Assembly (NCBI RefSeq): GCF_003334405.1
Contig: NZ_QOWM01000001.1
Source: Escherichia coli
Lineage (GTDB): Bacteria > Pseudomonadota > Gammaproteobacteria > Enterobacterales > Enterobacteriaceae
Strand: one strand, 5' to 3'
DNA: 64,000 nt
The notes beneath the pieces were generated by a model. That model saw nothing but the letters and a program-made list of their open reading frames with translations, had not been told where the DNA came from and made no database searches. The stretch's first letter is position 1, and the number at the start of each line of letters is the position of its first letter. Of the stretch, positions 2,637 through 50,818 are shown piece by piece. The position numbers and the translations under genes were made by a program.

Positions 2637-3602
2637 ATGAGTAAACAACGCATTTTTATCGCTGGTCATCGCGGGATGGTCGGTTCTGCCATCAAGCGGC
2701 AGCTCGAACAGCGCGGTGATGTGGAGCTGGTATTACGTACCCGCGATGAACTGAACCTGCTGGACAGCCGCGCGGTGCATGATTTCTTTGCCAGCGAAAG
2801 CATTGACCAGGTCTATCTGGCGGCGGCGAAAGTGGGCGGCATTGTTGCCAACAACACCTATCCGGCGGATTTCATCTACCAGAACATGATGATTGAGAGC
2901 AACATCATTCACGCCGCGCATCAGAACGACGTGAACAAACTGCTGTTTCTCGGATCGTCCTGCATCTACCCGAAACTGGCAAAACAGCCGATGGCAGAAA
3001 GCGAGCTGTTGCAGGGTACGCTGGAGCCGACCAACGAGCCTTATGCCATTGCCAAAATCGCCGGGATCAAACTGTGCGAATCTTACAACCGCCAGTATGG
3101 ACGCGATTACCGCTCTGTCATGCCGACCAACCTGTACGGGCCGCATGACAACTTCCACCCGAGTAATTCGCATGTGATCCCAGCATTGCTGCGTCGCTTC
3201 CACGAGGCGACGGCACAGAATGCGCCGGACGTGGTGGTGTGGGGCAGCGGTACACCGATGCGCGAATTTCTGCACGTCGATGATATGGCGGCGGCGAGCA
3301 TTCATGTCATGGAGCTGGCGCACGAAGTCTGGCTGGAGAACACCCAGCCGATGCTGTCGCACATTAACGTTGGTACGGGCGTTGACTGCACTATCCGCGA
3401 GCTGGCGCAAACCATCGCCAAAGTGGTGGGTTACAAAGGCCGGGTGGTTTTTGATGCCAGTAAACCGGATGGTACGCCGCGCAAACTGCTGGATGTGACG
3501 CGCCTGCATCAGCTTGGCTGGTATCACGAAATCTCACTGGAAGCGGGGCTTGCCAGCACTTACCAGTGGTTCCTTGAGAATCAAGACCGCTTTCGGGGGT
3601 AA
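2637..3602 (+). CDS. fcl: GDP-L-fucose synthase (GDP-4-keto-6-deoxymannose epimerase/reductase)
   Basis: 321 aa SDR-type ORF directly after gmd with 2-nt spacing. Confidence 0.95.
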
Positions 3603-3604
3603 TG

Positions 3605-4084
3605 ATGTTTTTACGTCAGGAAGACTTTGCCACGGTAGTGCGCTCCACCCCGCTTGTCTCTCTCGACTTTATTGTCGAGAACAGTCGCGGCGAGTTTCTG
3701 CTTGGCAAAAGAACCAACCGCCCGGCGCAGGGTTACTGGTTTGTGCCGGGAGGGCGCGTGCAGAAAGACGAAACGCTGGAAGCCGCATTTGAGCGGCTGA
3801 CGATGGCGGAACTGGGGCTGCGTCTGCCGATAACAGCAGGCCAGTTTTACGGTGTCTGGCAGCACTTTTATGACGATAACTTCTCCGGCACGGATTTCAC
3901 CACTCACTATGTGGTGCTCGGTTTTCGCTTCAGAGTAGCGGAAGAAGAGCTGTTACTGCCGGATGAGCAGCATGACGATTACCGCTGGCTGACGCCGGAC
4001 GCACTGCTCGCCAGTGACAATGTTCACGCTAACAGCCGCGCCTATTTTCTCGCTGAGAAGCGTGCCGGAGTACCCGGATTATGA
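3605..4084 (+). CDS. gmm: GDP-mannose mannosyl hydrolase (Nudix)
   Basis: 159 aa from MFLRQ; Nudix box region; start overlaps fcl stop. Confidence 0.9.
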
Positions 4085-5304
4085 AAATACTGGTCTACGG
4101 CATTAACTACTCGCCGGAGTTAACCGGCATCGGCAAATACACCGGCGAGATGGTGGAATGGCTGGCGGCACAAGGTCATGAGGTGCGGGTCATTACCGCA
4201 CCGCCTTACTACCCGCAGTGGCAGGTGGGCGAGAACTATTCCGCCTGGCGGTACAAACGGGAAGAGGGGGCCGCCACGGTGTGGCGCTGCCCGCTGTACG
4301 TGCCAAAACAGCCGAGCACCCTGAAACGCCTGTTGCATCTCGGCAGTTTTGCCGTCAGCAGTTTTTTCCCGTTGATGGCGCAACGTCGCTGGAAGCCGGA
4401 TCGCATTATCGGCGTAGTGCCAACGCTGTTTTGCACGCCGGGAATGCGCCTGCTGGCGAAACTTTCTGGTGCGCGCACGGTGCTGCATATTCAGGATTAC
4501 GAAGTGGACGCCATGCTGGGGCTGGGCCTTGCCGGAAAAGGCAAAGGCGGCAAAGTGGCACAGCTGGCGACGGCGTTCGAACGTAGCGGACTGCATAACG
4601 TCGATAACGTCTCCACGATTTCGCGTTCGATGATGAATAAAGCCATCGAAAAAGGCGTGGCAGCGGAAAACGTCATCTTCTTCCCCAATTGGTCGGAAAT
4701 CGCCCGTTTTCAATATGTTGCAGACGCCGATGTTGATGCCCTTCGTAACCAGCTTGGCCTGCCGGATAACAAAAAAATCATTCTTTACTCCGGCAATATT
4801 GGTGAAAAGCAGGGGCTGGAAAACGTTATTGAAGCTGCCGAACGCCTGCGTGATGAACCACTGATTTTTGCCATTGTCGGGCAGGGCGGCGGCAAAGCGC
4901 GGCTGGAAAAAATGGCGCAGCAGCGTGGACTGCGCAACATGCAATTTTTCCCGCTGCAATCGTATGACGCTTTACCCGCACTGCTGAAGATGGGCGATTG
5001 CCATCTGGTGGTGCAAAAACGCGGCGCGGCAGATGCCGTATTGCCGTCGAAACTGACCAATATTCTGGCAGTAGGCGGTAACGCAGTGATTACCGCAGAA
5101 GCCCACACAGAACTGGGGCAGCTTTGCGAAATCTTTCCGGGCATTGCGGTTTGCGTTGAACCGGAATCGGTCGAGGCGCTGGTGGCGGGGATTCGTCAGG
5201 CGCTCCTGCTGCCCAAACACAACACGGTGGCACGTGAATATGCCGAACGCACGCTCGATAAAGAGAACGTGTTACGTCAATTTATAAATGATATTCGGGG
5301 ATAA
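4081..5304 (+). CDS. wcaI: Colanic acid biosynthesis glycosyltransferase WcaI (GT4)
   Basis: 407 aa; start overlaps gmm stop (ATGA); synteny. Confidence 0.9.
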
Positions 5305-46399: not shown

Positions 46400-47572
46400 T
46401 TGCTGTTGAAACGCCGTCTTATTATTGCTGCTTCTTTGTTCGTTTTTAACTTATCGTCTGGTTTTGCGGCGGAAAACATTCCTTTTTCACCTCAGCCTCC
46501 ACAGATTCATGCCGGGTCCTGGGTACTGATGGATTACACCACCGGTCAGATCCTCACCGCGGGTAATGAGCATCAACAGCGCAATCCCGCCAGCCTGACA
46601 AAGCTGATGACGGGTTATGTCGTGGATCGCGCTATCGATAGTCATCGCATTACGCCAGACGATATTGTCACCGTGGGGCGCGATGCGTGGGCGAAAGATA
46701 ATCCGGTGTTTGTCGGTTCTTCACTGATGTTTTTGAAAGAGGGCGATCGCGTATCGGTACGTGATTTAAGCCGTGGTTTAATTGTGGATTCCGGAAATGA
46801 CGCTTGTGTTGCTCTGGCTGACTATATTGCCGGTGGGCAACGGCAGTTTGTTGAAATGATGAACAACTATGCCGAGAAGCTGCATCTCAAGGATACGCAT
46901 TTTGAAACAGTGCATGGTCTGGATGCACCTGGCCAGCATAGCTCGGCTTATGATTTAGCTGTGCTTTCTCGCGCTATCATCCACGGCGAGCCCGAGTTTT
47001 ATCATATGTACAGTGAGAAAAGTCTCACCTGGAACGGTATCACCCAGCAAAACCGTAACGGGTTGTTGTGGGATAAAACCATGAATGTTGACGGCCTGAA
47101 AACGGGTCATACTTCTGGTGCCGGGTTTAATCTCATTGCTTCGGCTGTAGATGGGCAGCGTCGTCTCATTGCAGTGGTAATGGGGGCTGACAGTGCAAAA
47201 GGTCGTGAGGAAGAGGCAAGAAAATTACTGCGTTGGGGGCAACAAAACTTTACTACGGTGCAAATTTTGCACCGTGGGAAAAAGGTCGGAACGGAACGCA
47301 TCTGGTATGGCGATAAAGAAAATATCGACCTGGGAACGGAACAAGAGTTCTGGATGGTGCTACCGAAAGCCGAAATTCCACATATCAAAGCCAAATATAC
47401 CCTTGATGGTAAAGAGCTCACCGCGCCAATTAGCGCCCATCAGCGGGTAGGGGAAATTGAACTTTACGACCGTGATAAACAGGTGGCGCACTGGCCGCTG
47501 GTTACCCTGGAATCTGTCGGGGAAGGCAGCATGTTTTCTCGCCTGAGTGATTATTTCCACCATAAGGCCTGA
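46400..47572 (+). CDS. dacD: D-alanyl-D-alanine carboxypeptidase (PBP6b)
   Basis: 390 aa; signal peptide, SLTK active-site motif (ASLTKLMT); apparent TTG start. Confidence 0.9.
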   Translation: MLLKRRLIIAASLFVFNLSSGFAAENIPFSPQPPQIHAGSWVLMDYTTGQILTAGNEHQQRNPASLTKLMTGYVVDRAIDSHRITPDDIVTVGRDAWAKDNPVFVGSSLMFLKEGDRVSVRDLSRGLIVDSGNDACVALADYIAGGQRQFVEMMNNYAEKLHLKDTHFETVHGLDAPGQHSSAYDLAVLSRAIIHGEPEFYHMYSEKSLTWNGITQQNRNGLLWDKTMNVDGLKTGHTSGAGFNLIASAVDGQRRLIAVVMGADSAKGREEEARKLLRWGQQNFTTVQILHRGKKVGTERIWYGDKENIDLGTEQEFWMVLPKAEIPHIKAKYTLDGKELTAPISAHQRVGEIELYDRDKQVAHWPLVTLESVGEGSMFSRLSDYFHHKA

Positions 47573-47656
47573 CCTTTCTTTTGCAGCAGACTGGCAGGAG
47601 TGCGAGTCTGCTCGCATAATCAACACTCATTCCTTGTGGTTTTAATTTTGCAACTA

Positions 47657-47676
47657 TACTGTATATAAAAACAGCA
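47657..47676 (+). promoter_or_regulatory. LexA (SOS) box upstream of sbmC
   Basis: TACTGTATATAAAAACAGCA matches CTGT-N8-ACAG consensus, 15 nt upstream of sbmC ATG. Confidence 0.85.
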
Positions 47677-47690
47677 TCAATGGAGGCGTC

Positions 47691-48164
47691 ATGAACTACG
47701 AGATTAAGCAGGAAGAGAAACGTACCGTTGCAGGTTTCCATCTCGTTGGCCCGTGGGAACAGACGGTAAAGAAAGGTTTTGAGCAGTTGATGATGTGGGT
47801 AGATAGCAAAAATATTGTGCCGAAGGAGTGGGTTGCTGTCTATTACGACAATCCGGATGAAACACCCGCCGAAAAATTACGCTGCGACACCGTCGTGACG
47901 GTACCGAATAACTTTACGCTCCCCGAAAACAGTGAGGGCGTCATTCTGACAGAAATTTCAGGTGGTCAATATGCGGTGGCGGTGGCTCGTGTAGTCGGTG
48001 ATGATTTTGCTAAACCCTGGTATCAGTTCTTTAATAGCCTCTTGCAGGACAGTGCTTATGAAATGTTACCAAAGCCCTGCTTCGAGGTTTACTTGAACAA
48101 TGGCGCGGAAGATGGGTACTGGGATATCGAAATGTATGTTGCGGTGCAGCCAAAACATCACTAA
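47691..48164 (+). CDS. sbmC: DNA gyrase inhibitor SbmC (GyrI)
   Basis: 157 aa; synteny and LexA box. Confidence 0.9.
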
Positions 48165-49921: not shown

Positions 49922-50021
49922 TTCCCGTTTTATTCAATGAGGGTTGCCCGGCAACCTTCATTGCTCATTGATTCTTATCTGTGTATCACCGTCATCATTC
50001 TCATCTGAGAACCAATCGAAA

Positions 50022-50260
50022 TTAACAACAGCCTTCTTCTGTATGCAGCAAGGCAAAAAGTTCTGTAACTCCATTGTTATTAACTGCACTGGTTACTAAC
50101 ACGTTGTGCGCTCCAGCTTCCCGTAACCAACTTTTCACCAAAGATATTTGTTCCATGCTGGCTAAATCTGCTTTGGTTACTACTCCAATGACCGGGTGAT
50201 TCATGGCCCGGTAGGGCGTTTTTACCTCTAATTCCTGCTTCAGCGCTGAGATTCCTGCTT
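50022..50260 (-). pseudogene. C-terminal fragment of a EutP/PduV-family small GTPase (yoeF-like remnant)
   Basis: PVIGVVTKADLAS...LFALL resembles the PduV/EutP C-terminus; no N-terminal P-loop region present; truncated at the IS66 junction. Confidence 0.4.
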
Positions 50261-50261
50261 G

Positions 50262-50434
50262 TTGCCGGAAAAGCAGGCACCTGCCGTCTGAACGGTATCG
50301 ATCCGGAAGCGTATCTGCGCCATATTCTGAGCATACTGCCGGAATGGCCCTCCAACCGTGTTGACGAACTCCTGCCATGGAACGTAGTTCTCACCAATAA
50401 ATAAGCGTCAATACGGTGCTCCGTTGACGCTTAC
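50262..50434 (+). mobile_element. IS66-family element remnant: last ~45 codons of transposase plus terminal repeat
   Basis: Translation ...GTCRLNGIDPEAYLRHILSILPEWPSNRVDELLPWNVVLTNK*; about 85-90 percent nucleotide match to the inverted copy at 57659-57805; ends ...CGCTTAC. Confidence 0.65.
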
Positions 50435-50818
50435 TTTAATCCGTTTTCTGAGCTTAGATTTTTCTGTTCCTACCCAGACCGTGGATTTGGAATTCATTTT
50501 TTGTCAGGTCAATGCTAATCGTTAAAACGGCCATAACGCACCTCCACTGGAAGGTTTATCAGTAATATCCTACCGTTGCTTCATGGTCGGGGCGTCCATT
50601 CCATTATTATCGGTTTTCCTTTCTGTTTATAAATGAAAACGCCAGCTGTATTCAGGCTGGCGTCAGGGGAAATGAAGCCTGTTGAGTGAGATTCACCGGT
50701 TCTGGTGCAGAAGCTGCAGATGGCGCAGGGTAAGGACATCTTCTCTTGCCTGCTTAATACAGGACAACAGTGCTGTTTCTGTGGTTAATGGCACTATACC
50801 CTGCATCACTGCATTGTC

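Follow-up and report, generated by a model that had tools for sequence, protein, structure and literature searches.

The stretch of Escherichia coli DNA that was analysed, which is referred to here as the window and has a length of 64,000 nucleotides (64 kb), carries the genes sbcB, dacD, sbmC and yeeA in their standard order. The features discussed below lie at and between the two middle genes of this series, and are listed here with the grounds on which each was assigned.

46406..47572, + strand: dacD, the upstream neighbour of sbmC, with its stop codon TGA at 47570-47572 (open reading frame and annotation of identical or near-identical loci)
47586..47611, + strand: inverted repeat GCAGACT-N12-AGTCTGC downstream of the stop codon of dacD, sharing sequence with the left half of the CRP-S site (sequence)
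47598..47619, + strand: CRP-S site (Sxy-dependent, non-canonical CRP site), core TGCGA-N6-TCGCA at 47601-47616, centre 47608.5 (alignment; PMC1635313)
47634..47639, + strand: putative -35 hexamer TTGTGG, separated from TATACT by a 15-nt spacer (T47635 and G47636 nearly invariant in 81 sequences)
47655..47660, + strand: putative -10 hexamer TATACT, preceded by C at 47654 and overlapping the left arm of the box (TAnAnT in most genera)
47657..47676, + strand: TACTGTATATAAAAACAGCA, very probably the LexA (SOS) operator of sbmC (matrix score, no chance matches, 19/20 bases shared with K-12, alignment)
47675, + strand: variant base at box position 19, C in the window and T in K-12 (comparison with K-12; E. 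coli genome counts)
47682..47686, + strand: Shine-Dalgarno sequence GGAGG of sbmC (sequence; nearly invariant across the sbmC upstream alignment)
47691..48164, + strand: coding sequence of sbmC (gyrI), 157 aa (open reading frame list, identical annotated loci, PDB match)

The initial annotation had named the downstream gene as sbmC, encoding a gyrase inhibitor, and this assignment is backed by dacD-sbmC loci identical to that of the window and by a full-length match of the 157-aa product to PDB entry 1JYH_A (“DNA gyrase inhibitory protein”; residues 1-157 to residues 1-157, E 5.4e-107). A 301-bp stretch around the box has a match in 5,418 of 5,426 complete E. coli genomes, and in the several genomes that are 100% identical over the 301 bp, the annotation is always dacD followed by sbmC.

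Past yeeA and tmaR (approximately 50000-56000), collinearity between the window and strain 7/2 is lost, even though the two are 100% identical around sbmC. The window has transposase-like open reading frames at 51478-52853, where strain 7/2 carries the CP4-44-type genes yeeW, cbtA, cbeA and yeeS, and collinearity with this strain downstream of sbmC was discarded, given that it breaks down near 52 kb.

Sequence and score of the LexA box

The box was located by an exact match of the 20-mer at 47657-47676 on the + strand, and it is palindromic, so it is effectively strandless. Its arms are CTGT at 47659-47662 and ACAG at 47671-47674, and the spacer between them, ATATAAAA, is composed entirely of A and T, which agrees with the fit to CTGT-N8-ACAG described in the initial annotation. 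The distance of 15 nt given there between the box and the start of sbmC is also correct, in that the box and the ATG (47691) are 14 nt apart and, counting from the end of the box, the start codon begins at the 15th base.

The bare pattern CTGT-N8-ACAG has two matches in the 64 kb, when 0.51 would be expected, and two matches were reached in 7 of 100 shuffles, a count that is weak evidence by itself. When up to three mismatches are allowed, the consensus TACTGTATATATATACAGTA was found only once in the window, at the sbmC box (three mismatches), against an expectation of 0.00, given that none of the 100 shuffles produced a match.

A LexA matrix was also built from the 18 sites that MEME had identified ahead of E. 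coli genes induced by UV (PMC3009722 Table 4), from which the sbmC site was left out to avoid circularity, leaving 17 training sites. This matrix gives both a heterology index (HI) and a log-odds score, and was applied to all the 20-mers on both strands of the 64 kb. The scoring, which the initial annotation had proposed as a check, places the sbmC box first among all these 20-mers, with 26.9 bits and an HI of 1.15, a value that derives from the 17-site matrix and is not on the published Lewis/Courcelle scale, on which the K-12 sbmC box has an HI of 2.8 (PMC11228462). With this index, the box outscores 15 of the 17 training sites, including the operators of recA, sulA and lexA, and the next distinct LexA-like site in the 64 kb has an HI of 9.81.

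Two other candidates within the window were rejected. The site TTCTGCATAGCTATCCAGTT, at 29989-30008 (HI 9.8), was judged to be a chance match, being inside ugd. The second match to CTGT-N8-ACAG, CTGTCGCGAGTGACAG at 52434-52449, was also attributed to chance, given its G+C-rich spacer and its absence from the top HI scores; it lies within a 223-aa transposase-like open reading frame, which has a weak match to the IS21 family that falls below the curated cut-off.

The allele at position 19

In K-12, the sbmC box TACTGTATATAAAAACAGTA is found in the same dacD-sbmC intergenic locus and at the same distance from the ATG as in the window, and the two boxes share 19 of their 20 bases, with position 19 as the sole difference (T in K-12, C in the window), whereas the CRP-S site and the putative promoter hexamers are identical. 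The comparison with the K-12 promoter that was suggested in the initial annotation thus upholds the identity of the box almost to the base, but also reveals what had been missed there, i.e., that the window carries a minority allele, ending in CAGCA, where K-12 has CAGTA.

The C19 allele is present in 325 of the 5,426 complete E. coli genomes and the T19 allele in at least 3,963, as counted by the use of 36-mers positioned in such a way that each 28-base seed must span position 19. Three alleles (TA, CA and TG) occur at positions 19-20 of the box in E. coli, and these are the only positions that vary within it in typical strains, given that positions 1-18 were invariant in all six of those sampled; in the divergent strain E69, the box differs at positions 2 and 15. 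The last two bases of the box and the adjoining leader form a polymorphic patch (47675-47684), which is represented in E. coli by CAGTATCAATGGA, CAGCATCAATGGA, CAGTAATAATGGA, CAGTGTTAATGGA and CAGTGTTAGTGGA, and in some strains, GGAGG is replaced by GGGGG. The 50 bp at 47596-47645, which include the CRP-S site and the -35 region, were invariant among the E. coli alleles sampled.

On the same matrix, the K-12 T allele has an HI of 0.58 and the C allele of the window an HI of 1.15, such that the cost of T19C is 0.57 HI units with the asymmetric matrix and 1.02 with a symmetrised one, and the HI of the window box is predicted to be approximately 0.6-1.0 higher than that of K-12. Among the training operators, C ranks second in frequency at position 19 (6/17), and it is also found in the operator of lexA itself. 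Operator 1 of lexA, TGCTGTATATACTCACAGCA, has the right end CAGCA in common with the window box, and C19 is therefore compatible with a functional operator; this site departs more from the consensus, however, and its HI is 4.68, against 1.15 for the window box on the same matrix. The K-12 umuDC operator, on the other hand, is the same 20-mer as the K-12 sbmC box (PMC3009722 Table 4), and both are among the tightest predicted operators, but umuDC represents another gene and promoter context, and the window box differs from its operator at position 19.

Given the scores and the allele counts, we infer that C19 is a natural minority allele which is probably near-neutral, with LexA binding predicted to be only slightly weaker and the site still ranking among the strongest operators. 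The reading that competes with this is that T19C measurably loosens repression in the lineage that carries it, raising the basal expression of sbmC or altering the fraction of ON cells, and would thus be a regulatory variant. The rise in HI on both versions of the matrix, the minority status of the C allele (325/5,426) and the presence of T at position 19 in at least 90% of the 81 aligned sequences all point in this direction, but the predicted change is small and leaves a site that still outscores the recA, sulA and lexA operators, C19 is present in six of 17 bona fide operators, and the confinement of the polymorphism of the box to positions 19-20 in typical E. coli suggests that these positions are weakly constrained, all of which makes a regulatory variant unlikely.

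A single-base polymorphism in the yebG box of Salmonella is known to alter the heterogeneity of expression (PMC8072944), and with this precedent, a small phenotypic effect of C19 is conceivable, while a large effect is unlikely. The 20-mer with the C allele was not found in the literature searched. The allele at position 19 adds a small new detail and, as a natural variant, may be used to test the contribution of the outer flank of the box to LexA binding.

Conservation and control of the sbmC promoter

The conservation of the box was assessed in one genome per species, which provided 80 sbmC loci from approximately 20 genera of Enterobacteriaceae, in which the 120 nt upstream of each start codon were aligned (81 sequences in the alignment) and the box was judged by the alignment together with pattern counts. 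A lack of conservation, which the initial annotation had named as a result that would count against the box, was not observed, given that a box-like element is present at the same place, 17-39 nt ahead of the ATG, in 77 of the 80 orthologous loci. The canonical form CTG-N10-CAG accounts for 42 of the 80 loci, again 17-39 nt before the ATG, and the form [A/G]TG-N10-CAG occupies the same place in 35. In the alignment, which has the consensus TTATACTGTATATATATACAGTAT, there is almost no variation in TGTAT and ACAGT, and the flanks are scrambled.

The C of the left-arm CTG is replaced by G mainly in Enterobacter, Lelliottia, Leclercia and Silvania, and by A mainly in Klebsiella and Raoultella. In the genera with the altered left arm, the right arm ACAGT is intact, and in the Enterobacter group, the -10-like hexamer that overlaps the box is still TATAGT. 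The LexA control of sbmC may be weaker in Enterobacter, Klebsiella and related groups (approximately 35 loci) than in Escherichia.

No box was found in three of the 80 loci, which belong to Intestinirhabdus alba, to K. michiganensis, where the locus is interrupted by an intron, and to an Escherichia sp. A deletion has removed most of the box in Escherichia sp. MOD1-EC7003, where sbmC is also truncated, its match extending over residues 1-82 only, and Intestinirhabdus alba has an apparently full-length sbmC with no recognisable box.

In Salmonella enterica, the single sbmC box is located 21 bp from the ATG, has an HI of 6.32, and is associated with a 3.55-fold induction by nalidixic acid (PMC8072944). 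This orthologous operator aligns with the window box and is also close to the ATG, but differs in its distance of 21 bp and in the sequence of its spacer.

Upstream of the box, the most conserved block is the core of the CRP-S site, with the half-sites TGCGA at 47601-47605 and TCGCA at 47612-47616, which fits the 22-bp motif with C6 and G17 (as defined in PMC1635313) and is represented in other genera by TGCGA-N6-TCACA or TGTGA-N6-GCACA. The core and both diagnostic bases are shared with the CRP-S sites of the Sxy/TfoX competence regulon, from which sbmC differs in that it is not a DNA-uptake gene and that its CRP-S promoter is, in all probability, additionally gated by LexA. Cameron and Redfield (PMC1635313) reported a CRP-S motif in sbmC, with a 6-fold induction by Sxy that required both CRP and Sxy, and the power of the CRP-S motif to predict Sxy dependence was validated on this gene as the test case (PMC1635313). 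Activation by CRP through a class I mechanism is stated in the same paper (PMC1635313, citing Zheng 2004).

The centre of the CRP-S site (47608.5) precedes the C of CTGT by 50.5 nt and would be at -58.5 to -61.5 from the transcription start, which we infer to be at 47667-47670, and a centre near -61.5 or -62.5 was taken as the spacing of class I sites. The inverted repeat that overlaps the left half of this site was considered as a structured RNA or terminator and was not adopted, given that its pairing is only modest (67.8% of cells, against 63.1% in the shuffles and 27-43% in slid controls) and that it has no T-run. Some compensatory changes are found in this repeat across the genera.

The assignment of the core promoter is putative. 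The proposed -35 and -10 hexamers were not called as a pair by the sigma-70 consensus scan, and their 15-nt spacer in E. coli is unusually short. The pair that the scan did call, CTGGCA-N18-CATAAT (47591-47620), was rejected as the promoter of sbmC, given that only its TGTGA-N6-GCACA part is kept in the Klebsiella group, and the published CRP-S site was preferred for this segment. The sequence CTATACT is the preferred extended -10 of sigma-S, and a promoter of this type would fit the stationary-phase induction of sbmC. The use of sigma-70 is not predicted for this gene, which has a biphasic UV response (PMC5999292), and the details of the promoter may therefore depart from the hexamers proposed here.

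The position of the box provides a plausible mode of repression, in that it overlaps the conserved -10-like hexamer, and a LexA dimer bound to CTGT-N8-ACAG would, whichever of these promoter readings applies, cover this hexamer (47655-47660) and the likely start, a few bases downstream, such that RNA polymerase would presumably be excluded by occlusion. Following DNA damage, the self-cleavage of LexA stimulated by RecA would free the promoter, and the gyrase inhibitor would be made. As the promoter would also need CRP and Sxy at the CRP-S site located approximately 50 bp upstream, and is induced in the stationary phase, LexA would act as a gate on a promoter that depends on an activator.

In K-12, sbmC is a classical SOS gene repressed by LexA, with an HI of 2.8, a 5.7-fold induction by AZT and a 9.5-fold lexA dependence (PMC11228462), and its box is the best-scoring LexA motif among the UV-induced genes (p 1.5e-12; PMC3009722). 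The SOS regulation of sbmC that was proposed in the initial annotation is thus supported by the matrix score and the conservation of the box, and by the lexA-dependent induction published for the T allele of K-12 (PMC11228462, PMC3009722). Both this induction and the dependence on CRP and Sxy come from the literature on the K-12 allele, and the function of the C-allele operator is predicted from its sequence. Overall, it is very probable that the 20-mer is the LexA operator of the sbmC (gyrI) promoter of E. coli, with LexA gating an otherwise activator-dependent promoter.

The alternative in which the palindrome is kept mainly as core promoter DNA, i.e., the AT-rich -10 and start, or as the site of another regulator, with its likeness to a LexA box being incidental, would account for the overlap of the left arm with the conserved TAnAnT hexamer and for the many genera that replace the LexA-critical C of CTG while the hexamer stays -10-like. 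It would not account for the right arm, ACAGT, which is outside any -10 and yet is conserved as much as the left arm, nor for the extreme score on the symmetric matrix or the lexA-dependent induction published for K-12 (PMC11228462), and it is highly improbable. A functionless chance palindrome, for which the weak over-representation of the bare pattern (two matches against 0.51 expected) might be invoked, is refuted by the matrix score, the 0.00 consensus matches expected, the conservation of the element and the published regulation (PMC8072944, PMC11228462, PMC3009722). The 20-mer is thus best regarded as a textbook SOS operator that was correctly recognised from the sequence alone; the sbmC LexA operator is already known, and its finding here, in which the observation is confirmed and the interpretation supported, adds nothing new in itself.

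Mobile elements in LexA boxes

In other strains, the sbmC operator is a recurrent insertion site, both for an ISL3-family element and for a group II intron whose targets appear to be LexA boxes in general. The 301-bp match around the box is broken in the dacD-sbmC intergenic region in approximately 288 E. coli genomes. The ISL3-family element ISKox3, with a frameshifted transposase, is found inside the box, with an identical junction in 82 of these complete genomes, where it is flanked by an 8-bp target duplication of ATATAAAA, which corresponds to 47663-47670 in the window (coordinates 3150-4500 in the example locus). The element splits the two arms of the box and displaces the promoter and the CRP-S site, which destroys the sbmC operator in these 82 genomes.

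A group II intron of 1.9 kb, in sense orientation to sbmC, interrupts the same box in seven records from six E. coli strains. The junctions in strain CH468 are clean, reading ...AAAAACAGT/GTGCG...CGCGAC/ATCAATGG, where the uninterrupted allele reads ...AAAAACAGT/ATCAATGG, and the intron is therefore located between positions 19 and 20 of the box, with no duplication, a point equivalent to that between 47675 and 47676 in the window. In the sbmC box of K. michiganensis, the 3' end of the same intron is found at the same position. Given the sense orientation, the intron is left under what would be an almost intact SOS operator.

A query internal to the intron recovered 267 copies, of which 222 are plasmid-borne and which are distributed over 215 of the 5,426 E. 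coli genomes, and the intron is present in 4,259 of the 72,556 PLSDB plasmids, mostly from Klebsiella. Ten copies sampled for diversity, together with a prophage copy in strain 97.3, provided eleven 5' junctions from at least eight different loci, and in all eleven, a complete LexA box lies directly 5' of the intron (TACTG-N9-ACAGT/GTGCG). The targets include the chromosomal boxes of umuDC and istR-2/tisB, both identical to the K-12 sequences in PMC3009722, as well as three different plasmid umuD boxes and the boxes of plasmid and prophage S24-peptidase genes. With the addition of the sbmC copies of CH468 and K. michiganensis, all 13 intron copies examined are inserted in a LexA box between positions 19 and 20. 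The boxes differ from one intron copy to another, and are therefore targets rather than part of the element. The possibility of a LexA box that travels with the intron was rejected for this reason, and also because the boxes match those resident at umuDC, istR-2 and sbmC and uninterrupted alleles exist.

The ribozyme matches the Rfam model group-II-D1D4-6 with 184.9 bits, and in the search of the intron-encoded protein against Pfam, only an RT domain was found, with no endonuclease domain detected. Folding predictions for the boxes give single-strand hairpins with stabilities of -2.3 to -6.1 kcal/mol, values that include three test sequences with a borrowed 3' flank. Compact introns of class C, which have no endonuclease, recognise stem-loops in the DNA. 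A LexA box that forms a hairpin resembles the targets of class C introns, and the assignment to this class is putative. The right arm of the box is complementary to UACUGU, which is a candidate EBS1 of the intron.

All 11 of the 5' exons sampled, and that of the CH468 sbmC copy, have T at position -1, where the window has C (47675); the window thus departs from the target pattern TACTG-N9-ACAGT with T at -1, and it carries no intron. The T19C change also lowers the predicted stability of the hairpin from -4.0 to -1.6 kcal/mol. A tentative reading, to which we would give a little less than an even chance, is that this widespread and mostly plasmid-borne intron homes specifically into LexA operators, and that T19C, which alters the -1 base complementary to the candidate EBS1, could confer resistance to invasion; the protection of the C19 site is speculation.

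The only mention of the intron found in the searched literature is that of an ltrA intron in pOXA-48, “suggested to frequently excise/insert” (PMC10432403). No description of a link between a group II intron and LexA boxes was found in the literature searched, and the literature and databases beyond this coverage may hold one. If the specificity of the intron is real and undescribed, a retroelement present on about 6% of sequenced plasmids would be coupled to the SOS response.

Finally, in the E. coli O68:H12 strain 97.3, dacD is absent and a prophage remnant lies between sbcB and sbmC, which contains an integrase disrupted by an IS3 element, an HTH regulator, a DUF2513 gene and a partial S24 peptidase gene. 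The 5' exon of the intron found there is the LexA-like box of the S24 gene, and its 3' exon is the sbmC leader, an arrangement which looks like the outcome of a deletion by recombination between two copies of the intron inserted in two different LexA boxes.
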